Below, piece after piece: positions 2,373-13,399 of a DNA stretch of 64,000 nt. Within the stretch, counting starts at the first letter, position 1. Each line of letters opens with the position of its first letter. The position numbers and the translations under genes are program-made. The notes under the pieces are model-generated. The model did not search any database. It had not been told where the DNA came from and saw only the letters and a list, made by a program, of their open reading frames with translations. Origin of the DNA: Longimicrobiales bacterium (lineage in GTDB: Bacteria > Gemmatimonadota > Gemmatimonadetes > Longimicrobiales > Gaopeijiaceae); assembly GCA_965249725.1 (NCBI GenBank), contig CBDFMQ010000002.1, positions 192,001 to 256,000 on the forward strand, in the 5' to 3' direction.

Positions 2373-3737
2373 ATGAGCGGCATCTTGGACTCCATGCTCC
2401 GCAATGCACTCCAACTGATCTCGCTTCTGTATCGGCTCCACCCTGTGGGGCCGGTGGCCTACATGGTCGCAACCGCACCGGTACTGCTTTCGGCATCGCT
2501 CACGGCACAGCAACTCCGCTACGACCGGGAGTATCCCGAGATCGGCTACTACACGCACCAGCCGACTGACCCGGTCGCCGAGCTGCAGCGGTCGGTTGCC
2601 CGGGGCGAAGCGGTTTTGACGTTCGACCCGCGAGGCGGATACCTGGCGTCGCTTCTGGAATCCCTCGACGTTCCTGTCGAGTCCCAGATGCTCGTCTTTT
2701 CACGGACGAGCTTTCAGGAGCGTTTCATCTCGCCGGAGACCCCGCGCGCGCTCTACTTCTCGGACGAGGTCTACGTGGCATGGCCGCAGGGCAGCGACTT
2801 CGTGGAGATCGCGGCCATGGACCCTGCACTGGGTCCGGTCTTCTACACGTTGAGCCAAGCGCCGACGGCCACCCCCGAATTCCGGCGGGAATACGGTCTT
2901 TGCCTGCAATGCCACGACACCTACGGACTCTCCGGCGGTGGAGTGCCGCGCTTCCTCATCGGCTCCGGCGCTACGAACGAACTCGGCGAGCCCGACTCGC
3001 ACAACGCTTGGCAGCTGACCACGGATCAGACCCCATTGGACCGGCGTTGGGGCGGGTGGTACGTGACCGGTACCCATGGCCAGCAGGTTCACATGGGGAA
3101 CGTGGTGACGGAGGTACGAACGGGAGATCCGGCGTCGCGGCCGGCGGCTCCCGAGACTCATGGCAACCTCACGGATCTTGGCGGCCTCCTGGATACCTCG
3201 CCTTACCTCACCGGGCTCAGCGACATCGTCGCGCTCATGGTCGTCGAGCATCAGATCCACGTGCAGAACGTCATGACCCGTGCCGGCTGGGAGGCGCGCA
3301 AGTCGGGCGGGCCGGAGGGGTCGGGTCAGGCACCGAGCAACATCGATGAGCTGGGGGAGCCGCTCGTCCGGGCCATCCTGCTCGTAGATGAGGCGGCTCT
3401 TGAAGCTCCGATCGAAGGCACATCTGGCTTTCGTGCTCGCTTCGAGGGCTTGGGCCCGGCCGACGATGAGGGCCGCTCACTCCGCGAATTGGACCTGAGA
3501 CGACGCTTGTTCCGATACCCGCTCAGCTACCTGGTCTATTCCGACGCATTCGGCGCCTTGCCGGTCCACTTGAAGGAGCAGGTGTTCCTGCGGATCTGGG
3601 AGGTAGCGTCCGGGCAGGACAAGACCGAGGACTTCGACCACGTCACTGCGGCGGACGGAGTGGCCGTCCTCGAGATCCTCGAGGCGACGCACCCGGAGTT
3701 CGCCCAATGGATGTCGGATACGGCCAGCCGCCCGTAG
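2373..3737 (+). CDS. Secreted protein with a single CxxCH heme-c motif
   Basis: 454-aa ORF, CLQCH motif, probable signal peptide (LTA-Q); start uncertain. Confidence 0.65.
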   Translation: MSGILDSMLRNALQLISLLYRLHPVGPVAYMVATAPVLLSASLTAQQLRYDREYPEIGYYTHQPTDPVAELQRSVARGEAVLTFDPRGGYLASLLESLDVPVESQMLVFSRTSFQERFISPETPRALYFSDEVYVAWPQGSDFVEIAAMDPALGPVFYTLSQAPTATPEFRREYGLCLQCHDTYGLSGGGVPRFLIGSGATNELGEPDSHNAWQLTTDQTPLDRRWGGWYVTGTHGQQVHMGNVVTEVRTGDPASRPAAPETHGNLTDLGGLLDTSPYLTGLSDIVALMVVEHQIHVQNVMTRAGWEARKSGGPEGSGQAPSNIDELGEPLVRAILLVDEAALEAPIEGTSGFRARFEGLGPADDEGRSLRELDLRRRLFRYPLSYLVYSDAFGALPVHLKEQVFLRIWEVASGQDKTEDFDHVTAADGVAVLEILEATHPEFAQWMSDTASRP

Positions 3738-3951
3738 GGAGCCAGTCCGTTCGATCGAGGGCATGAGAGCCTCCTCTCTACCGAAACCTATTCGCGGTAT
3801 GATGGGACGTCTGTCGGGAGAATCCCTCGCGGCGACTGCTGGCGGGAAGGTGCAGCGGGTCGCACACTTCTCGGGTCCGTGACGTTTCGACGGCACCAGA
3901 GAACATCAAAGGGGATAGGCGTCCCATGATCCATCACCCGCGGAGGACCTC

Positions 3952-4755
3952 ATGAAGTCACGTGCCACGGCCGCGGCCGTCGCCCTCTTACTCGTCTCCG
4001 GTGCCGTCTCGGCGCAGCAGGGACCCGACACGGTCTTCCTGGATGAGCTCACCTGGACCGAGGTCCGTGCGCGTATCGAAGCCGGGACGACGACGGTCAT
4101 CGTGCCCACGGCCGGGACCGAGCAAAACGGCCCCCACATGGTGCTGGGCAAACACAAGTTCATCGTCAACCACGCCTCGAACCTGATCGCACGGGAGCTC
4201 GGCAACGCGCTGGTGGCACCCGTGGTCACCTACGTGCCGGAGGGGTCGGTGGAGCGGATCGCCCAGCACCCGCGGTACAATGGGACGATCACTCTCCCCA
4301 ACGAGCACTACATGAAGCTCCTCGAATACGCGGCTCGGAGTCTGGCCATGGGCGGATTCACGGACATCGTGTTTATCGGTGACAGTGGCGGAAATCAGGG
4401 TGGCATGCGTGACGTGGCGGCCATGCTGAACGAGGAGTGGGCCGGAGAAACGGCGCGGGTGCACTTCGTGGGCGACTACTACTCGAACAATGGCATCAAC
4501 GATTGGCTCATGGCGGAGTACGGTCATACCGAGGAGACGATCGGGGGGCATGCCGGCATCCGTGACACGTCGCAACTTCTTTATGTGGCGCCTCAGCACA
4601 TCCGCACCGATAAGCTTGCGCCCCTCGGCGGTGGTGAGGGGATGGGGGTCACAGGCGATCCCACCCTGGCGTCGGCCGAAAAGGGCCGGCAGGGGATCCA
4701 GATGAAGGTTGACGCCGCCTTGCGGCAGACTCGTGACTTGGTAGGCCCCAGATGA
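3952..4755 (+). CDS. Creatininase/mycofactocin-peptidase family protein, secreted
   Basis: LDELTWTEV, PTAGTEQNGPH, GDSGGN and GGHAGIRDTS motifs; signal peptide. Confidence 0.85.
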   Translation: MKSRATAAAVALLLVSGAVSAQQGPDTVFLDELTWTEVRARIEAGTTTVIVPTAGTEQNGPHMVLGKHKFIVNHASNLIARELGNALVAPVVTYVPEGSVERIAQHPRYNGTITLPNEHYMKLLEYAARSLAMGGFTDIVFIGDSGGNQGGMRDVAAMLNEEWAGETARVHFVGDYYSNNGINDWLMAEYGHTEETIGGHAGIRDTSQLLYVAPQHIRTDKLAPLGGGEGMGVTGDPTLASAEKGRQGIQMKVDAALRQTRDLVGPR

Positions 4756-6101
4756 TGACTAGAACAGTACTTTCGGCGCTCCTCTTGGTGGTCTCCGTGT
4801 TCTGCGGCGCGCCACTCGCCGCCCAGCAGTCTTCCGAGGAGCGGGGCAGCGACAACCTCACGGTGGTGTCCCATCTGCCTCTCGGTGGGGCCGAGAGCAT
4901 GGCCGATATCGAAATCGAGCAGGACATGTCTCGGCCGTTCGTTTATGTGGCCCGCCAGATGCGGCGGGAGGACCGGCGATCACCGGGCGCTCCAGGCGAT
5001 CGTGGATTGGACATCCTCGACGTCTCCGATCCGGCGAACCCTGATGTGATCCACCGGTGGCGCATCGAGGATTCGGACCTGCACGTGGGTGCGGGCGGCA
5101 AGGACATCAAGACGTTCGAGTGGGACGGCCGTCACTATATCGTCCTGTCCTTCCAGTTCGGCCAGGGCGGGCCCAACGCCGACCTCGGCGCCATCGTCTT
5201 CGACGTCACGGGTCTACCGGATGTGTCGACGTTCCGTGAGGTCGCCCGGATCCAGGGCCCGGGGGAGTTGGCGGGCTTCCACAACGCTTATGTCTACCGG
5301 CACAGCAACGGCAGAGCGCTGCTCTTTTCGACCGTCGCGGGCCCGTTCGCCAATGTGTACGATCTGGGCTACCTGGTGGAGGGCAGGGAAGATGCTTTGG
5401 TTGCTCAAGTGCCGATCCCTCAGTCGGAGCAGGTTCCGGGTGCGCGGGGTTATCACGACTTCTACGTCGGATATCATCCGGACAGCGAACAGGATCGCTT
5501 CTACGGTGGCGGGACCGGCGGGTACTACGTGTACAACATCACCGACCTGGAGGACCCCGAGCTGCTCGTCACGCTGACCGGTGTTCGGGGGGTCGACCGG
5601 GGGCACACGTTCACTCCGTCTCCGGACGGCAGGTACGTCGTGGCCGAGGTCGAGTACCAGTACGCCCCACTCCGGGTTTTCGACCTCAAGCCGGGGCTCG
5701 ACGGCGAGGTGTCGAACATCAATCAGCCCATCGCCGCCTGGTTCGCTAATCCCCAGAACCTGGTCCACAACCACGAGGTCCGCTGGCCTCTAGTGTTCGT
5801 TTCGGCGTACCGGGACGGTCTACAGGTCTTCAGCATGCAGGACCCGAAGAAGCCGCGGACCGTGGCGCACTACGACACCTATCTCGAACCCGAGGGTGCC
5901 GGCGTGACGACGGGTGGGTGGGGCGTCGACGTCCGTAACGCCGACGGCCTGATCGTGTTGTCGGACAAGGAGACCGGCTTCTGGGCCTTCCGCCTCGAGG
6001 GATTCAGCGGGTGGAACGGTCTGGACTACGGAATGCCCAACGTGTCCAGCGTACAGGACTGGGAGAACGGACCGGCAGTGCAGGCTCGCTCGAGGCGGTG
6101 A
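4752..6101 (+). CDS. Secreted LVIVD-like repeat beta-propeller protein (paralog 1)
   Basis: Repeats GLDILDVSDP, YYVYNITDLEDP, GLQVFSMQDP; signal peptide; overlaps upstream stop. Confidence 0.8.
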   Translation: MMTRTVLSALLLVVSVFCGAPLAAQQSSEERGSDNLTVVSHLPLGGAESMADIEIEQDMSRPFVYVARQMRREDRRSPGAPGDRGLDILDVSDPANPDVIHRWRIEDSDLHVGAGGKDIKTFEWDGRHYIVLSFQFGQGGPNADLGAIVFDVTGLPDVSTFREVARIQGPGELAGFHNAYVYRHSNGRALLFSTVAGPFANVYDLGYLVEGREDALVAQVPIPQSEQVPGARGYHDFYVGYHPDSEQDRFYGGGTGGYYVYNITDLEDPELLVTLTGVRGVDRGHTFTPSPDGRYVVAEVEYQYAPLRVFDLKPGLDGEVSNINQPIAAWFANPQNLVHNHEVRWPLVFVSAYRDGLQVFSMQDPKKPRTVAHYDTYLEPEGAGVTTGGWGVDVRNADGLIVLSDKETGFWAFRLEGFSGWNGLDYGMPNVSSVQDWENGPAVQARSRR

Positions 6102-6114
6102 GGCGCCAAACGAG

Positions 6115-6144
6115 TTGACAGGCTCTCGATCTCTCGACTAGAGT
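6115..6144 (+). promoter_or_regulatory. Sigma70-like promoter of the ncRNA-RT operon
   Basis: Perfect -35 TTGACA (6115-6120), 18-nt spacer, -10 TAGAGT (6139-6144); predicted start near 6151, just before the structured leader. Confidence 0.65.
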
Positions 6145-6161
6145 GAGCGTCGCCAGCCTGT

Positions 6162-6367
6162 GCTCTTCCAGAGTTGTGCTGACGGCACCTCGTACTCCTA
6201 CGAGTTGTCGACCGTTGTGGGCCTGCCGCCGTCATTTGAAGCTGTCCGACAACAGTGGCGGTAGGTGAGACAATAGGAATTGAGAACTTTCAGTTACCCG
6301 TCTGTTCCCTTTCGATTAATAGTTCGGCGCTCGCCGTGCTATGCCGTCGGTGCAACTCTGGGAGAGC
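6162..6367 (+). ncRNA. Candidate RT-associated structured ncRNA
   Basis: 26-bp stem 6162-6187/6342-6367 (22 WC + 4 G-U, no mismatches); hairpins 6189-6204, 6221-6266, 6276-6298 and 6325-6336; 7-bp complement 6204-6210/6247-6253 (possible pseudoknot); ends 20 nt before the RT ATG. Confidence 0.75.
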
Positions 6368-6387
6368 GAGCTCTTGCCTAGCGTACG

Positions 6388-7629
6388 ATGATGCCGGGCA
6401 CCTTTGAGGCCATTGTCGATCCTGCGAACCTCAGAGCGGCCTATCTGGAAACTGTTCAGCGATTTGAAGAGCAGCGGAAAGGTCGTCGTTACGCGGGTAT
6501 TGACGGAATAAGCCTGAGGGACCTTGCGTTCGTATCGGCGTCATACCTCGAGACTATCCAGCAGGAGATGATCACCTCCTCTCCGCTTGATCCGACCTTG
6601 GAAATGAGCATTCCGAAAGCCGAGGGCGGCACGCGCCTCATTTACAGCTACACCGTCAAGGATCGCATCAAGGCGCGAGCGATCTCTCGTGTCCTCGAGC
6701 CCGTCTTCGAAGGGGCCTTCAGCCCTTTCTTCTTCTCTCACCGCACCACGCACCCACACTACAAGGCGGTCCGAAGCGTCGCCAAGCGATATCGAAGACA
6801 CTACGGGCAGGATACCGTGCTGTTGATAGATGTCGCGGACTATACGGGCAACATCAGGAAGGACCGCTTGTGCGAGCAGTTGCAGGGATTGGGCTTGGAC
6901 TCCAATACCATCGCTTTACTGGAGCTCTTCCTGAACAACAGCGTCATGACCTCCGAGGGCCTCGTCTATCCCGAGAAAGGCCTCGTTACCGGCGTTGGTC
7001 TGATGGGGCTCTTTGCGAATCTGTACCTGAATGATCTCGATCACACGGTGGGCCGACGGGTATCGCTTTATCGACGGGTCGGGGACGACTTGATTCTGAT
7101 GGATCGAGACAGCGAGAAGCTGGCCAACATCCATCGGGACATCACAGATCAGCTAGAGGAGAGAGGCCTCGAGCCGAGCGTGGAGAAGCTGTCGTTGATC
7201 AGGAGTAACGAACGGTTTCGATATCTGGGCTACTCGTTTCACGAGCGACGGATCTCAATTCGCCCGTCGTCGGTACGACGAATCGTTCAGCGTTGGAAGC
7301 GAATCCTGAGGTACTATCCCGGTTCGAAAAACGGAAAGCTGAGACGGCTCTCGAAGATCTTGTATGAGAATGAAGACTCGATCCATCGGGACTTTCTCAG
7401 GGTTATTGCCGACTATCGGTGTTGTACCGACGCAGGGCAGATCCAGGAGTTATCCGGAGTCTTCTATAGGGTGCTGACGCGGTATTTCTATGGCAGCTAT
7501 TCCCACCGGAAACAAAGAAAGGTGAGGCTACTGACGGGTCCGCTTGATGTCCCCTCACTATCCCGGTACTACTTTGATTTCCACCATGGAAGACGCTCAC
7601 TCTCAAGCCTGGCTGTTTCAGCGCGCTAA
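6388..7629 (+). CDS. Reverse-transcriptase-fold polymerase (group-II-like/unclassified) with non-canonical motifs
   Basis: RT0 AGIDG, RT1 IPKAEGGTRLI, RT2 KDR, RT3 IDVADYTGNI, RT4 GLVTG...FANLYLNDLD, RT5 YRRVGDD, RT7 FRYLGYSF; no recognisable endonuclease domain. Confidence 0.9.
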   Translation: MMPGTFEAIVDPANLRAAYLETVQRFEEQRKGRRYAGIDGISLRDLAFVSASYLETIQQEMITSSPLDPTLEMSIPKAEGGTRLIYSYTVKDRIKARAISRVLEPVFEGAFSPFFFSHRTTHPHYKAVRSVAKRYRRHYGQDTVLLIDVADYTGNIRKDRLCEQLQGLGLDSNTIALLELFLNNSVMTSEGLVYPEKGLVTGVGLMGLFANLYLNDLDHTVGRRVSLYRRVGDDLILMDRDSEKLANIHRDITDQLEERGLEPSVEKLSLIRSNERFRYLGYSFHERRISIRPSSVRRIVQRWKRILRYYPGSKNGKLRRLSKILYENEDSIHRDFLRVIADYRCCTDAGQIQELSGVFYRVLTRYFYGSYSHRKQRKVRLLTGPLDVPSLSRYYFDFHHGRRSLSSLAVSAR

Positions 7630-9295
7630 TCGCATCAAGCACGAGCTGTACCCCTTGCGCCTCACGAAGCGTCAACGGGCATATCTCCGCGCTGTGCTGG
7701 AGCGCTACCGCCGCCGACTGAGCGGGATCACCGTCTTGATCCTCGCCGCCACTCTCTGCGAGATCGCGATCCCCCTGGTCACGCACGTATTCCTGAAGCG
7801 GTATTCTCTCCAGTTGGAATGGGGGCGACTCTCTTGGGCCTTCGCCGGGCTGGTCGCGCTGGCAGTCGTCTATCTCGGCATCGCGTATCAGCGGATCAAG
7901 CATGAGAAGACCGCCATCGTGCTGCTGCTGAATGAGTTGCGCCACGAGTGGGTGGCGTTCTTCTTGCGCAAGTCACCGCTCTCTCTGCGGCACCACGACA
8001 AAGGTGTCCTGCTCACGAGGATCAGCTATCACCTGTCCCTTCTACAAATGGGACTGGGGAACGCGTTCTTCGTTGGGCTACAGAGCGTATTGCTGGTGGT
8101 GGGCCTCGTTGCTGTGACCTTCTTCATCGACACTCGGCTCCTTATTCTAGTGCTCGCAACCCTGCCTTTCTGCGCCATCCTCTTTGCGGCAGGATATGTG
8201 GTCTCACGATTCTACCTGAGTCAGGATCAGACCCTCTATTCGAAGATCCTCCAGTACGTCTCAGACGTTTTCAACGAACTGCCGGCGATCCACTTCGCGA
8301 ACAAACGGCCAGCCGTGCTGGACCATCTCGATCAGATGGTGAGCATCGATTCCTACTTTCGGGTGCGGCGAGAGCTATGGCTGAAGTTCGGCAACGTCAT
8401 TCTCTTCGTGCTCCTGGCTCTCCTCACGGGGGCCTTCTACCTCGTGGAGACGATGGTGCCCTTCTTTGAGCTGGACGGTCGCGTACAGCTCCCCGTGTAC
8501 ATCATCGTCTCCGGCATCCTGATCAAGCTGCTATACCAGAGTCTGCGAGTGGGCTTGTTCGCTTTTCCAGTCACGCTCGGCTTAGTGCTCTGCATTGGCG
8601 AGGGCTTTCCCTTGGGGAAGAGGCGGAAGCAGCAACCCATCCGGGAGTTCTCGGAGATATCGTTTTCGGCGAAGAAGGTCAGGCTCTTCCCTGACGGACC
8701 GATGGTCCGAGACAAGGAGTTTCGTTTCCGCCCCGGTGACCGAGTTCTAATCACTGGTCGGGAGGGGTCCGGCAAGAGCACGTTGGGGCAGTTGTTCTCG
8801 GGGCTTGCTCCGCTTGGTTTCACCAAGCCCTGGCGGATCAGAGTGCAGGGAGAGCGCCTCTCGTACCAACATTGGAGAGACCGTGCGCACGGTCTGACGA
8901 CCATTAGTCCCTTCTTCCAGAGCCAGGGAACCGTCTTCGAGTTCTTTTCACAGCAGCACAGCTACGACAGCCCTCCAACTGATATCAGGGTCTTCCTCGA
9001 AAGGCTCGCGCCGTACCCCGAGTTGAAAGGACTCCTTTCGCACGTTCGCGTTTTGGGCAAGCGAATCACACCTCAAAACACGTCGTTCGCGGAATTGGGA
9101 ATCCTGCAGATGGCGGCGTGTCTGCTTCATGCCCCGCGCGTCTTGGTGGTAGACAACACCTGGTTGGATCTGCGTCACGAAGGCGTCGACCGGGTTCTTC
9201 AGCTGCTCGATCGTGAACTGACGTCTACGGTTCTGATATGCTTTGCTCGAAACCGGAACGACCACCTCGATTATGATCAGTATCTCACGATCTAG
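7586..9295 (+). CDS. ABC-exporter-like protein (TM domain + degenerate ATPase)
   Basis: About six TM helices then Walker A GREGSGKST and Walker B-like VLVVDN; probable start ATG 7586 overlapping the RT stop (ORF track starts at 7544). Confidence 0.8.
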   Translation: MEDAHSQAWLFQRANRIKHELYPLRLTKRQRAYLRAVLERYRRRLSGITVLILAATLCEIAIPLVTHVFLKRYSLQLEWGRLSWAFAGLVALAVVYLGIAYQRIKHEKTAIVLLLNELRHEWVAFFLRKSPLSLRHHDKGVLLTRISYHLSLLQMGLGNAFFVGLQSVLLVVGLVAVTFFIDTRLLILVLATLPFCAILFAAGYVVSRFYLSQDQTLYSKILQYVSDVFNELPAIHFANKRPAVLDHLDQMVSIDSYFRVRRELWLKFGNVILFVLLALLTGAFYLVETMVPFFELDGRVQLPVYIIVSGILIKLLYQSLRVGLFAFPVTLGLVLCIGEGFPLGKRRKQQPIREFSEISFSAKKVRLFPDGPMVRDKEFRFRPGDRVLITGREGSGKSTLGQLFSGLAPLGFTKPWRIRVQGERLSYQHWRDRAHGLTTISPFFQSQGTVFEFFSQQHSYDSPPTDIRVFLERLAPYPELKGLLSHVRVLGKRITPQNTSFAELGILQMAACLLHAPRVLVVDNTWLDLRHEGVDRVLQLLDRELTSTVLICFARNRNDHLDYDQYLTI

Positions 9296-10745
9296 ATTCC
9301 GCCTGAGCAACCGCGAGCGGCGGTTCCTACAAAAGGGGGCGACACTCTTTGTGGCGTTCTCGGTGCTTGTTGTAGCCGCCTCGTTTCGCTTTGGAGACGT
9401 CCTTCGCAACCAGAAGCCCGCCTACTTCGTTACTGAGCAGGTGGTGGAGGGTCCTCTGCGGGGGAGGCTTCTCTTTAACGACGCCCCGAACAGCACCGCA
9501 CTATCGGAGTCCATCGTTTCCGTGATTCTCCAGGCCGAGCACTCGGCCGAGATGGGCATGTATTCCTTCAAGCACGAGGGGATTCGGCAGGCGTTGCTGA
9601 AGTCCTTCCAGGCAGGGAAGGTGGTGCACCTGGTCTTGGAACGCAGCAATCACCTCCAGCACGAGCGATTCTTGGGGGAGTACGATCTTCCGGTCACTGA
9701 ACTCGGCTCTTCGATTGGCGCGGAGCAGGGGGACTACGTACACCACAAGTTCTTGTTGAGCGACCGTGGTGAGAGGGGCGCTCAGCTGCTGGTCGGATCG
9801 CTGAACTACACTCCGCTCCAGGAACAATACGATCCCAGCTTCCTGCTTCACACGGCCGATCCGACCGTCCTGGAGGCGTTTTCAGCCGAGTTCGCACTCC
9901 TTGAGCGCAGGGTACGTGGTCGCAGCAAGCTCCGACAACCCGGCTACCGTCCATTGAGTAAGCGCCTACGATATTCCAATGGCCTCTTGGAGGTTTGGTT
10001 CGGACCCGGTATCGGGGGAAACTCCGTCAAGCACCGTCTCATCGATCTCATTCAGCAGGCGCAAACGGCCATCGATGTCATCATTTGGCAGATGACCGAC
10101 CGCGACGTTGCGCGCGTCCTCGTCGATAAGGCCCGAGAGGGCATCCCCGTGAGGATCATCACCGACGATTTCTACATTTGGGGCGATCATTCAGCGTTCC
10201 AGACGTTGGAGAACGCTCTCAATCAAGACGCTGACCTACCCATTGAGATCATCAGTGACTTGTACCGAACGCTCGATTTCTCGGGACTGATTCGAACGGA
10301 GGAGGACTATTTCAACCCCTATATCCACCAGCACACGTTGATCGTGGATGACAGCGTGGTCTTGTCGGGAACGAACAACTGGACGGCCAATGGCTTCTAC
10401 AGAAACGACGAAAGCGTCTTCGTTTCTGACGTCGACTTTTGGGTGGATGGGTTTCGGGCGTCGTTCGCCCGTCACTACGAACAGCTGCGAGGCCGTCCAT
10501 TGGTTGTGTGGCGAGAAGGAGACGAACTCCACGTCGGGGAGGGTAATCGTGATCTCCTTGGCAAGACCCTTGTTGCCTATCACGAACGGAGTGAAGTAGA
10601 AGAGGTGCCACGGCCGTGTTTACGAGTCACCGTAACCGATGTCTCTCACGCTATCGTCATTCCTCCGGCATGTCGAGGCCGACACATCGCCGTGCTCGTC
10701 CTGGACCGGCAAGACCGGATGGTGGCGGCCGGCTACGTCAGGTAG
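9273..10745 (+). CDS. Membrane-anchored phospholipase D/nuclease superfamily protein, two PLD domains
   Basis: HHKFLLSD...GSLNYT and HQHTLIVD...SGTNNWT; N-terminal hydrophobic helix; ATG 9273 overlaps the ABC gene stop. Confidence 0.85.
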   Translation: MISISRSRFRLSNRERRFLQKGATLFVAFSVLVVAASFRFGDVLRNQKPAYFVTEQVVEGPLRGRLLFNDAPNSTALSESIVSVILQAEHSAEMGMYSFKHEGIRQALLKSFQAGKVVHLVLERSNHLQHERFLGEYDLPVTELGSSIGAEQGDYVHHKFLLSDRGERGAQLLVGSLNYTPLQEQYDPSFLLHTADPTVLEAFSAEFALLERRVRGRSKLRQPGYRPLSKRLRYSNGLLEVWFGPGIGGNSVKHRLIDLIQQAQTAIDVIIWQMTDRDVARVLVDKAREGIPVRIITDDFYIWGDHSAFQTLENALNQDADLPIEIISDLYRTLDFSGLIRTEEDYFNPYIHQHTLIVDDSVVLSGTNNWTANGFYRNDESVFVSDVDFWVDGFRASFARHYEQLRGRPLVVWREGDELHVGEGNRDLLGKTLVAYHERSEVEEVPRPCLRVTVTDVSHAIVIPPACRGRHIAVLVLDRQDRMVAAGYVR

Positions 10746-10795
10746 TTGGAAGTCCGACGAGGACCGCGACTCCCATATCGAATTCGACCAGGCCG

Positions 10796-11194
10796 CTAGT
10801 GACCGCTGTTGTCGGCCTCGCAGTTGGGGGCACAACCCGGGTTATCCTCGGGGTCGTTGGGATCACTTCCTGCATCCTCCTCCTCCCCGTTGGTCCATCC
10901 GTCACCGTCATCATCGTCCCCGGCATCCCTCGGATAGCTGTCAGCGTTGTCAGGGTCCGAACCATAGTCTCTCTCGTCGGCGTTGTTGGATCCGTCGCCG
11001 TCATTGTCTCCATTGGGGTCTTCCGGATAGTCCTCTGCATCATTCGGATCGGTACCCGCATCTTCTTCTTCGGCGTTGGTGAACTCATCCCCGTCATTGT
11101 CGTCCCCGGGGTTGTTTGAGGGGTTACATGCGGCCAAGAAGGTCGATAACAGTAGCGGAAGAAACAGCCTCTTTAGAGCATGGAAGTAGTTCAT
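10796..11194 (-). CDS. Lipoprotein with three acidic TSP3-like (Ca-binding) repeats
   Basis: Lipobox LAA-C; repeats DNDGDEFTNAEEEDAGTDP, DNDGDGSNNADERDYGSDP, DDDGDGWTNGEEEDAGSDP. Confidence 0.75.
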   Translation of the reverse strand: MNYFHALKRLFLPLLLSTFLAACNPSNNPGDDNDGDEFTNAEEEDAGTDPNDAEDYPEDPNGDNDGDGSNNADERDYGSDPDNADSYPRDAGDDDDGDGWTNGEEEDAGSDPNDPEDNPGCAPNCEADNSGH

Positions 11195-11389
11195 GTACCT
11201 TCTTGCCTCCCTCAGATTCACCCTTGGTGACGAGAACTAGAGCGGCGCCCTGCGGAGTTCTTGCGTCGTCATCGGTCGGGTAGCGGGTCTCGATCGTCGA
11301 CGCCACCCAGGTCGCGCGAAAGCAAGCAGTCCCTGGCGGCTCGGGACAACGTGATAGACGGAGCTGCTGCGGTCAACCTGAGGCTAGAT

Positions 11390-13399
11390 TCAGGACACTG
11401 AGTCCGACTGCCGAGCAATCTCCACACGGGCGTCGTTGAAGCACGCTCCCCCGCCGACCACATTCAGGTGCGTCGGACAGAGTGCGGTAGAGGTCAGCCC
11501 GTTCTTCGACGACTTCCGCCAGGCTCCCTTGGGCATCGACGCCACCCCCGGCCTCACCCGTTCCTCGAGCCGTGCCTCGCAGATGACTTCGCCCAGTTCG
11601 TTGAACACACGGACGACCTCACCGTCTGTGATGCCCCGCGGGGCGGCGTCCACCGGGTTGATGGACACCGACAGCACCGGATAGTTGAACTCGCCAAAGG
11701 TGCTCGACACCATCTTGTTGGTTGCCGGGCTGATCAATGTGAGCGGATACTCGGTGTCTTCGGCCGCTTCGTACTGATAGGGCTGTGGGCCGAGCTGAGA
11801 CGGGGTCAGGTGGATCCGGCCGTCGGGCGTGCGAGGCATGATCGTGCGGAGCTGGATCGCGCCGTCGGGAAAATCGACGGTGTCCACGCGTCCGGCCGAC
11901 AATGCCTCCACGTTCGCGGGACGACCCTCCAGGCTGAGTTCTTCCGCGACCTTCCGCATGTGGGTCTCACCGTCCCAGTCGAAGGGCGCATCGTCGAACC
12001 CGTTGGCCCGCGCCAACATGGAGAACACCTCGTCGTTGGGCTTCGCCTCCCCCATGGGATCGATCACCGGGCGGATCCCACCGACCACGTAGTTGCCGTA
12101 GCCGACTCGCAGGTCGTGCTGCTCCAGGAATGTCGTCGCGGGCAAGATGATGTCGGCGTAGTAGGCCGTATCCGTCATGACCTGATCGAAGACGACGGTG
12201 AAGAGATCCTCTCTCGCCAGGCCGCGGAGGACGGCATTCTGGTCGGGTACGGTGACCGCCGGATTGCAGTTGTAGACGAAGAGGCCCTTCAGTGGGGGGC
12301 TCTGATCTTCGTTCAGAAACTCCCCGAGAGACGTCATGTTGATGAGGCGCGTGGTCCAATCGACGTCTCCGTAGACTCGACTCGCGTTCACTTTGGCGGC
12401 CCCGGTGTTGCTCATCGTATAGCCGCCGGCATGGACCCCGAACTTTCCCATGAGCGCAGGCATCGCCAGGATGGCAGCGACTGCCTGACCGCCGTTGCGA
12501 TTCCGCTCCAGCCCCCAACCGCACCGGATGACGGCGGGACTGGCGTCCGCATAGGACCGAGCCAGGGTCTCGATGTCTTCGGCACGAACCCCTGATTCGG
12601 CGGCAGCGGCGTCCAAGGTCCACCTCTCGGCCTGTGCCAGCAGAGGTTCGAGCCCTGATGCCTCCTCGGCGAGGAACTCGTCATCGAGTTCTCCCGCCTC
12701 GTGCCAAAGCCGTATCATCGCGAGGGCCAACGGCAGATCGGTGCCGGGTCGTACCGGAAGGTGCAGGTCGATCTCGTTGTCGGAGAAACGGTTCCAGGGA
12801 TCGACCACGGCGACGAACGCGCCGTTCCGCTTCGCCTTACGCAGATACGGCACCAGATGGATGTTCGAGGCCTTGGGGTTCGCTCCCCAAACGATGATCG
12901 CTTGCGCGTCCGGATAGGCCTCGAACGGGACACCGGGCATCTTGCCGTACATCCCGATCGCCACCTCCGTGGTCGGGACCGCGCAGATGGTCTTGTCGAG
13001 GCGCGACGCCCCCAACCGTGCGAAGTAGAGCCTGTCCAAGCCGCCGTCGCTCAGGAGTCCGTTCGAGCCCCCGTAATGGTAGGGAAGGATGGCTTCTCCA
13101 CCCCACTCCTGTTTGATCTCCTCGAACCGCTCGGTGATCTCGCGGATCGCCTCGTCCCACGAGATAAGGACGTACTCGTCGGAGCCCTTGGCGCCCGCCC
13201 GTCGCATCGGGTGGAGCAGGCGGTCTTCGTGATAGACGCGCTGGCCGTACTGGCGGACCTTGTCGCAGATGAAGCCGTTGGTGACGCTGTGGTCTCGGCT
13301 TCCGGAGATGCTCTGCAGTTTGCCGTCCTCGACCCGCACCTCGAGTGCGCAGGTGTCCGGGCAGTCCATGATGCAGGTGGTGGCCAGGGTTTTCGTCAT
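11390..13399 (-). CDS. Molybdopterin-dependent oxidoreductase (DMSO reductase/FDH-alpha superfamily)
   Basis: N-terminal CIMDCPDTC...C [4Fe-4S] motif, YADIILPATTFLE, C-terminal dinucleotide-binding domain; GAGGA RBS before ATG 13399. Confidence 0.9.
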   Translation of the reverse strand: MTKTLATTCIMDCPDTCALEVRVEDGKLQSISGSRDHSVTNGFICDKVRQYGQRVYHEDRLLHPMRRAGAKGSDEYVLISWDEAIREITERFEEIKQEWGGEAILPYHYGGSNGLLSDGGLDRLYFARLGASRLDKTICAVPTTEVAIGMYGKMPGVPFEAYPDAQAIIVWGANPKASNIHLVPYLRKAKRNGAFVAVVDPWNRFSDNEIDLHLPVRPGTDLPLALAMIRLWHEAGELDDEFLAEEASGLEPLLAQAERWTLDAAAAESGVRAEDIETLARSYADASPAVIRCGWGLERNRNGGQAVAAILAMPALMGKFGVHAGGYTMSNTGAAKVNASRVYGDVDWTTRLINMTSLGEFLNEDQSPPLKGLFVYNCNPAVTVPDQNAVLRGLAREDLFTVVFDQVMTDTAYYADIILPATTFLEQHDLRVGYGNYVVGGIRPVIDPMGEAKPNDEVFSMLARANGFDDAPFDWDGETHMRKVAEELSLEGRPANVEALSAGRVDTVDFPDGAIQLRTIMPRTPDGRIHLTPSQLGPQPYQYEAAEDTEYPLTLISPATNKMVSSTFGEFNYPVLSVSINPVDAAPRGITDGEVVRVFNELGEVICEARLEERVRPGVASMPKGAWRKSSKNGLTSTALCPTHLNVVGGGACFNDARVEIARQSDSVS

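Follow-up and report, generated by a model that had tools for sequence, protein, structure and literature searches.

A conserved structured RNA lies upstream of a reverse transcriptase gene in a Longimicrobiales genome and may act as its scaffold and template

A conserved RNA element upstream of the reverse transcriptase

We analysed a 64,000-nucleotide window of a Longimicrobiales bacterium genome (GenBank assembly GCA_965249725.1, contig CBDFMQ010000002.1, positions 192,001 to 256,000 of the forward strand), in which a structured element of 206 nt on the + strand (6162..6367) lies directly upstream of three genes on the same strand. These encode a reverse transcriptase (RT; 6388..7629), an ATP-binding cassette (ABC)-exporter-like membrane protein (7544..9295) and a membrane-anchored tandem phospholipase D (PLD)-family protein (9243..10745). 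The element had originally been predicted to be a highly structured non-coding RNA (ncRNA) and the likely template or primer for the RT; the observation on which this was based is confirmed and the interpretation is borne out in part. Folding, conservation and covariation across homologous loci show the element to be a conserved ncRNA of five parts, namely a closing stem (P1), a small hairpin (P2), a pseudoknot with a larger stem-loop (P3), a region of variable hairpins (P4) and a terminal hairpin (P5).

The two ends of the RNA form P1, with every one of the 26 positions of the 5' arm (6162..6187) paired to the 3' arm (6342..6367) through 22 Watson-Crick and four G-U pairs, exactly as predicted, and with the 3' arm ending 20 nt before the RT start codon. 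As the four G-U pairs would be A-C on the - strand, they indicate an RNA helix on the + strand and not a DNA palindrome. The minimum free energy (MFE) of region 6150-6380 was -107.3 kcal/mol compared with a mean of -75.3 (sd 4.3) for 200 dinucleotide-preserving shuffles, none of which folded as well (z -7.38), and over 6162-6367 the + strand was better than the - strand by 22 kcal/mol (-101.9 and -80.1 kcal/mol, respectively). A covariance-model scan against Rfam 15 produced no match over the ncRNA at E<=10 in the window and none on the RNA at E<=0.1 in 15 homologous loci.

Directly after P1, the anticipated P2 hairpin (6189..6204) is present in the MFE structure with 6 bp (6189-6194/6199-6204) and a 4-nt loop. 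P3 (6212..6277), which was obtained in both the MFE and RNAalifold structures, is a stem-loop of ~60 nt with a lower stem (6212-6218/6270-6277), a middle stem (6221-6230/6257-6266), an A/U-rich asymmetric internal loop and an apical 5-bp hairpin (6241-6245/6252-6256); the 12-bp stem first placed at 6221-6232/6255-6266 is therefore present, although the MFE structure keeps 10 of its base pairs and adds the apical hairpin. P4 (6278..6317), which in homologues consists of one to several hairpins of differing length, here forms an AU-rich helix (6278-6285/6310-6317) in place of the AU-rich hairpin expected around 6276-6298. P5 (6319..6342) abuts the 3' arm of P1 and is made of helices 6319-6323/6338-6342 and 6325-6328/6333-6336, the second of which is the small GC hairpin that had been foreseen; RNAalifold and covariation also recover P5. 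Just 5' of it, an alignment of 3' domains revealed a conserved A/T-rich motif of the ATTAAT/ATAAAT type (~6313..6322), which is partly paired inside P4 in the MFE structure of the window. The heptamers at 6204-6210 and 6247-6253 were also exactly complementary as claimed, and since G6204 is shared with the closing pair of P2 we count the resulting pseudoknot as 6 bp, between 6205..6210 and 6247..6252 in the apical loop of P3.

Upstream of the RNA there is a promoter-like site on the + strand (TTGACA, an 18-nt spacer and TAGAGT; 6115..6144), identified by pattern matching, with a predicted start near 6151, ~10 nt before P1. It is the sole such site on either strand of 5900-11400, but shuffled sequence contained 1.5 on average, so a single site is not significant in itself and the argument for a promoter is one of position.

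Homologous loci were taken from alignment-based scans, with 37 from species-representative genomes and 52 from metagenomes, whereas a single-protein search of genome contigs had returned no relative. Most loci have a long closing stem of unrelated sequence, spanning ~200-330 nt and ending 0-60 nt before the RT start, and in their MFE structures many share the same branch order of P1, small hairpin, stem-loop, variable hairpins and a terminal hairpin abutting the 3' arm. Across these loci P1 has 9-30 bp, the small hairpin is no more than 8 nt from P1 and the terminal hairpin is 21-30 nt long, with the second branch (equivalent to P3) measuring 53-64 nt, mostly 57-61 nt, although this 53-64-nt range was the filter used for picking loci. 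Because P1 and P2 columns were ragged in our MAFFT alignment, we tested P1 using shuffles, G-U/A-C counts and cross-locus duplex energies. The ungapped closing helix exceeded all 30 shuffles in 28/58 non-redundant loci. For the 32 loci whose stems contain 14 or more Watson-Crick pairs, the count of internal oppositions was 63 G-U against 22 A-C (binomial p 1e-5). Likewise, duplexes between the two arms of one locus had a mean of -29.7 kcal/mol, compared with -13.8 (sd 5.9) for arms of different loci, with a locus's own arm being the best partner in 27/42 loci and among the top three in 33/42.

To assess covariation within the inner helices, 25 non-redundant RNAs were aligned with MAFFT (A2). 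From this alignment RNAalifold recovered P3 and P5 unprompted, with compensatory changes in 23/23 predicted pairs, and when the proposed structure was imposed, pseudoknot included, 87.5% of cells were paired and the covariation score was 0.692, compared with 33-47% and 0.09-0.19 when the 3' partners were slid; none of 500 shuffles reached these values. In P5 88-92% of helix cells were paired and all 8 pairs had changes on both sides, while the P3 apical hairpin in a single fixed register was weakly supported (66% of cells paired), its register varying among subgroups. RNAalifold applied to the 5' domain alone selected the pseudoknot helix.

A covariance model built on P2 and P3 only (R1, 87 positions) was run over both strands of 874 kb and gave 62 matches at E<=0.01, every one of them on the RT strand. 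Among the 77 RT loci whose upstream sequence extends for 350 nt or more, 56 have a match, with one exception starting 160-594 nt before the RT start codon, while in the genome of the window R1 has a single match, at the RT locus. In the alignment fitted to R1 (A4, 47 distinct rows) P2 was paired in 92.2% of cells, a value that reflects the model-based fitting, and the pseudoknot, which is absent from R1, was paired in 99.3% with changes on both sides in 6/6 pairs (one pair, for example, being GC in 27 sequences, UA in 15 and AU in 5). The pseudoknot, initially raised as a possibility, is thus real, and covariation together with the bias of G-U over A-C upholds the view of a strand-specific RNA structure under selection rather than a DNA palindrome. 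The tie to the downstream RT also holds across dozens of divergent loci, as it does for retron and DRT ncRNAs.

The 3' domain is conserved in the A/T-rich stretch just before P5 and in a CCG...GG apex within P5. Two tandem full copies of the RNA precede one RT at L036 938-1510 (= L083) and at L046 5404-6000 (= L085), and in each pair the copies agree almost completely in their 5' and 3' domains and differ, with compensatory changes, in the middle hairpins. At one further locus (L063) an R1 match at 161-253 lies ~2 kb upstream of the RT with a - strand gene for a Fib_succ_major-domain protein in between, and here an insertion may have split the RNA from the RT; in the near-identical L039 the upstream sequence is too short to include the equivalent position.

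The reverse transcriptase and its partner genes

The RT has 413 aa and was identified through domain (RVT_1), profile and structure matches, with a catalytic xGDD motif that is invariant in the family. Among 5.8 billion proteins searched we found relatives in 50 clusters (P0002-P0051; E 1.6e-117 to 6e-42; 31-45% identity), several of them named as Patescibacteria, followed by a gap before group II intron RTs begin at 4e-20. The best PADLOC models for the RT were generic RT (2e-38), UG26 (7e-36) and UG17 (1.7e-30), with the UG26 match being partial (121.8 bits, model positions 35-297 of 398), and over 48 aligned family members no UG model did better than 2e-39 (UG26), with UG17 reaching 6.6e-39 at best and always scoring below the generic RT model. 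We therefore rejected membership of UG17, and likewise of UG26, for which the match is not at family level. Retron RT models gave only weak matches (RT_VII-A2 5.8e-10, RT_III-A 8.6e-9, St85 5.2e-7) compared with group II and generic RT models (1e-36 to 2e-38), and a retron RT identity was also discarded. The best NCBIfam model was group II intron RT/maturase (1.5e-36), at 126.2 bits against a cut-off of 300.

Searched against PDB sequences, the family profile matched group II intron RTs first (6e-38), followed by Cas6-RT-Cas1, DRT9 (6e-22), DRT2 and G2L4, with retron RTs at 8.7e-8 or worse (Ec86 9e-8). Using an AlphaFold model of the RT (mean pLDDT 94), Foldseek returned GsI-IIC RT with a TM score of 0.76-0.81, DRT9 with 0.72 and G2L4 with 0.70. 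Nonetheless, the maturase domain PF08388, which is recorded on true group II intron RT matches, is not recorded on P0002-P0048 or P0050-P0051, and an Rfam E-value scan of window 5500-11500 and 15 homologous loci found no match to a group II intron family. A group II intron RT with a maturase domain was consequently rejected as well. On these profile, PDB and fold results the RT forms a distinct group II intron-like clade of about 50 clusters, mostly from Patescibacteria and outside any modelled retron or UG group, which by sequence and fold resembles group II intron RTs most and then DRT9, UG26 and UG17. In several loci (L014, L018, L034, L017, L056 and others) the RT gave a full-length tblastn match with no intact table-11 open reading frame (ORF), and frameshifts, in-frame stops or an alternative genetic code are possible explanations in these very AT-rich genomes.

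The ABC-exporter-like protein, whose frame overlaps the 3' end of the RT gene, has 583 aa and consists of a transmembrane domain and a degenerate nucleotide-binding domain (ABC_membrane, ABC_tran), with the exporters BmrA and MsbA as its best matches among solved structures. Walker A is for the most part retained, no conservation is seen in the ABC signature motif, and Walker B reads D-N and not the usual D-E (D in 40/42 and N in 32/42 homologues); judging by these motifs, it probably binds ATP and hydrolyses it poorly or not at all. The 500-aa PLD protein has an N-terminal hydrophobic helix and two PLDc_2 domains, of which the first HxKxxxxD motif is invariant and the second is HxHxxxxD in 36/36 homologues, and among named proteins it is closest to the nucleases NucT, Nuc and Zucchini/MitoPLD, and to DrmC. 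Downstream of the RT, the ABC-like ORF was present in 42 and the PLD ORF in 36 of 58 non-redundant loci, with many contigs ending too early. A distant RT subclade (~30% identity) has these partner genes in a divergent arrangement, as in L042 (PLD<-ABC<-|RNA->RT), and L044, L047 and L092 likewise carry the ABC-like gene upstream in the opposite orientation. This survival of the RT-ABC-PLD linkage through rearrangement argues for a shared function.

Other genes were observed beside the module in some loci. In L028 (10325-10948) and L086 (10428-11060) the PLD gene is immediately followed by one for RNase HII, and this could be a coincidental housekeeping neighbour or could be relevant to the processing of RNA-DNA hybrids. 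In a Patescibacteria subgroup the PLD gene is followed by Cupredoxin-domain proteins and a conserved ~195-aa protein (L038 10786-12023, L081 10861-11514).

Relation to known systems and possible function

With a stand-alone RT of the ~410-500-aa class, a structured multi-stem ncRNA upstream on the same strand and a putative membrane effector partner, the module resembles DRT10 (UG17) and DRT9 (UG28), and as noted DRT9 is the second-best structural match to the RT while UG17 is among its best PADLOC models. DRT11, in the same nomenclature, is UG5-nitrilase. The sources used for comparison with class 2 DRTs and retrons were PMC12632851, bioRxiv 10.64898/2026.04.29.721553 and PMC9226505, in which the DRT10-type ncRNA is described as a large central stem bearing smaller stem-loops (PMC12632851) and DRT10 as requiring an adjacent SLATT-domain effector (PMC12632851; bioRxiv 10.64898/2026.04.29.721553). 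In contrast, no Pfam scan of neighbours in our loci matched SLATT, the neighbours being ABC_membrane/ABC_tran and PLDc_2 proteins, and as the RT is not UG17 either, DRT10 was rejected. Furthermore, the RT scores higher on group II intron and generic RT models than on those of UG17, UG26 or Drt9, and the covarying pseudoknot, the long terminal closing stem and the lack of an Rfam relative separate this RNA from those of DRT10 and DRT9. UG26, the second-best PADLOC model, is a class 2 UG/Abi RT which according to PMC9226505 has no extra known domain and an unresolved defence role, with a YcjD/Vsr-like endonuclease linked in 9/35 members; here the match is partial and the partners are ABC-like and PLD proteins rather than this endonuclease.

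The original analogy with the retron a1/a2 stem holds for topology, because in both cases a terminal closing stem formed from both RNA ends lies immediately upstream of the RT, and further likenesses to retron msr-msd loci are the accessory effector gene(s) and the order of a conserved, recognition-like 5' domain ahead of hairpins that evolve fast. It does not extend to the RT clade (retron models at E 5e-7 to 6e-10; PDB retron RTs at 9e-8 or worse) or to the retron-type unpaired branching G after the 5' arm, which is not conserved, with G in the P1-P2 linker of 2/22 canonical loci; across these 22 loci the linker is mostly A, and it is a single C in the window. The wrong RT clade and missing branching G led us to reject a retron, and the RNA additionally differs in its pseudoknot and in a conserved 3' domain (P5) that separates the variable region from the 3' arm. 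The best full-length matches in sequence and fold are to group II intron RTs (GsI-IIC RT) and G2L4. Group II intron RTs have a YADD catalytic motif, unlike the xGDD seen here, and they also differ in lacking a dedicated ~200-nt ncRNA and membrane partners; with no ribozyme domain match, no PF08388 recorded and 126 against 300 bits, a group II intron was rejected. By analogy only, an RT-bound RNA with a conserved pseudoknot and A/U-rich single strands beside a presumed template would also recall telomerase RNA, and a connection between class 2 UG RTs and TERT is drawn in PMC12632851. By analogy the element most likely functions in the manner of the ncRNAs of DRTs or retrons, yet it lacks the defining features of each known family. 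Our literature search found no description of an RT-ABC-PLD-ncRNA module, and the supplementary tree of Mestre 2022 contains no PLDc or ABC terms; Table S2 of Mestre 2022 and the supplementary tables of PMC12632851, which were outside this search, might list the clade. An RNA-plus-enzyme system of this type thus does not seem to have been described before.

We favour, with a probability of roughly 60%, the reading that 6162-6367 is a + strand ncRNA of ~206 nt that is dedicated to the RT and provides both scaffold and template in a DRT- or retron-like module. The ncRNA and the RT would probably share one transcript, starting at a promoter that belongs to the element, and the RNA would fold into a closed multi-branch structure with P1 as the clamp, followed by a conserved 5' domain (P2, pseudoknot and P3), the fast-evolving middle hairpins and a 3' domain (A/T-rich stretch and P5). 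The RT would bind the 5' pseudoknot domain and copy a defined part of the same RNA into a small non-genomic cDNA, the likeliest template being the variable hairpins in the middle or the A/T-rich sequence that precedes P5, the latter also a candidate initiation site. This cDNA, or the state of the ribonucleoprotein, may then control the ABC-exporter-like protein and the membrane-anchored tandem-PLD protein, the second of these a putative nuclease or phospholipase, a coupling we propose because retron and DRT modules work in this way. According to PMC12632851, multi-stem ncRNAs encoded upstream serve class 2 DRTs as templates, and its authors propose cDNA control of the membrane effector in DRT10. 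It is with the three sources above as a guide that we infer RT binding, templating, the nature of the cDNA, its mode of priming and a biological role, for which defence is the likeliest.

Several results weigh against this reading. P1 is weak in ~9/42 loci, mostly in one subclade (L017, L072, L061, L055, L018, L062) along with L011, L080 and the proximal copy in L036, and R1 has no match in 21/77 loci. A test for a DRT2-like 'endless gene', applied to concatemers of whole RNAs and so not to sub-region templates, found no stop-free frame in 44/45 loci, with the sole stop-free concatemer coming from L062, where the RNA boundaries are doubtful. No conserved homopolymer was seen in the RNA, and the short A-B-A' strings visible by eye before P5 are expected by chance in A/T-rich sequence. 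As for defence, at E<=1e-10 PADLOC matched 9/127 neighbour ORFs (127 of 215 ORFs scanned, from 26 loci), and the sole clear defence system by the RT loci is AbiEi/AbiEii in L026, in host genomes that are small and poor in known systems. Identified neighbours include the housekeeping proteins DnaE, MutS, RecG and RNase HII (Pfam, 11 large flanking ORFs and a few downstream), and on a rough estimate DNA-repair neighbours occur at about chance level for small genomes. Finally, no terminator-like site was found between the RNA and the RT gene, and consequently the 'ncRNA' could simply be an mRNA leader.

The leader reading, in which a cis-acting 5' element of the RT mRNA has no template function and serves autoregulation, with the RT or some other factor binding it to adjust translation or the stability of the mRNA, is the strongest of the alternatives, though we consider it unlikely. 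Group II intron RTs bind an RNA stem-loop (domain IVa) at their own start codon and so autoregulate, and the kinship of our RT with these enzymes, like the way the P1 3' arm of most loci ends 0-60 nt ahead of the start codon, fits a leader. However, a five-element pseudoknotted fold of ~200-300 nt with a near-perfectly covarying tertiary helix exceeds known needs for RT autoregulation, and the two tandem full copies before one RT are also not expected of a leader. Within these copies the ends are fixed and the middle hairpins diverge fast, which resembles a cargo or specificity region and not an operator.

A more elaborate possibility, which we regard as doubtful, goes further than our favoured ncRNA-template reading. 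Here the family would be an independent RNA-templated 'programmed cDNA' lineage derived directly from group II intron RTs, with the pseudoknot acting as a telomerase/DRT10-like core that sets a template boundary and drives the repeated copying of a short segment. The resulting repeat DNA, linked to protein or RNA, would in turn gate the membrane machine formed by the non-hydrolysing ABC-exporter-like protein and the HxK/HxH tandem-PLD protein. If this holds, the family would connect group II intron RTs with the class 2 UG/telomerase branch and would be concentrated in tiny Patescibacteria genomes, and the copy in the window would represent an uncommon acquisition by a bacterium with a large genome.

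Retrons, DRT2, DRT9, DRT10 and similar RT-ncRNA modules have in each case uncovered a new mode of DNA synthesis, and some are now genome-engineering tools. The present family is compact, with a 413-aa RT, an RNA of ~200 nt whose structure and pseudoknot are fixed by covariation, and an unreported putative effector pair, and since it sits between group II intron RTs and telomerase-linked defence RTs it bears on the evolution of templated cDNA synthesis. Unlike its Patescibacteria relatives, the window copy comes from a GC-rich 4.2-Mb genome and could reasonably be expressed in laboratory hosts, which would let the DNA product, its priming and the roles of the ABC-like and PLD proteins be tested directly.

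Insertion, distribution and surroundings of the module

Comparison with a genome of the same genus (G002) showed that the module entered the window as a unit. In this genome locus L102 aligns at 1501-2818 with window 4775-6092 and at 2880-4318 with window 11421-12859, so that ~61 nt separate the flanking genes, compared with 5.3 kb in the window, and because the flanks are contiguous in G002 we define window 6093..11420 as a 5.3-kb insertion carrying the cassette. Its GC content is 0.55-0.59, compared with 0.63-0.65 outside, and no target-site duplication, terminal repeats or other repeats were found at its borders. No close RT was found in 40 related genomes, with the best hits being group II-like RTs (27% identity, 1.6e-19); the 40 include one flagged as unpublished (G025), whose match is weak and which supports no claim here. 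Even sampling of the phylum to which one Patescibacteria host belongs (301 genomes) gave an RT match at E<=1e-40 in two genomes, seed genome included, and one 0.7-Mb genome carries three RT copies. The module is thus rare, patchy, sometimes multi-copy and horizontally mobile. Separately, G001 and G002, both of the window's genus, contain 14 and 9 near-identical copies, respectively, of a ~508-aa frame with 25% identity to the query RT, which looks like a multi-copy group II intron family unrelated to the cassette.

This discrete insertion missing from a congener, the patchy distribution, the three copies in one small genome and the resemblance of the RT to group II intron RTs could together suggest that the RNA is a cis element serving the cassette's own mobility, within a reduced group II intron derivative or a new retrotransposon. 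We nevertheless consider this quite improbable, because no group II intron domain from Rfam was matched in the window region or the 15 homologous loci, PF08388 is missing from the records of the clusters named above, the borders bear neither a target-site duplication nor terminal repeats, structured RNA is confined to the 5' end of a 4.6-kb operon, and the window's genome has a single copy. A DNA-level feature, such as an inverted-repeat element (MITE/REP) or a terminator of the upstream gene, might be imagined from the 26-bp inverted repeat starting 61 nt past the stop codon of that gene, but is contradicted by the strand-specific non-Watson-Crick positions, the covarying pseudoknot and inner helices, the one copy in the genome, the absence of a T-tract after the stem and the link of the element to the RT and not to the upstream gene, which the congener has without the element.

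Two further genes were noted around the module. Within the insertion a small ORF on the - strand (10796-11195), convergent with the PLD gene, encodes a lipoprotein-like signal peptide and a highly acidic D/N/G/E/P-rich repeat, and contains a DNA direct repeat (D1; 10837-10923 and 11023-11109, 71% identity). Just upstream of the insertion, the + strand gene at 4752-6101 has a choice-of-anchor B domain match and belongs to a very large paralogue family, with 75 DNA matches in its own genome, often in tandem arrays, and 66 in G002.

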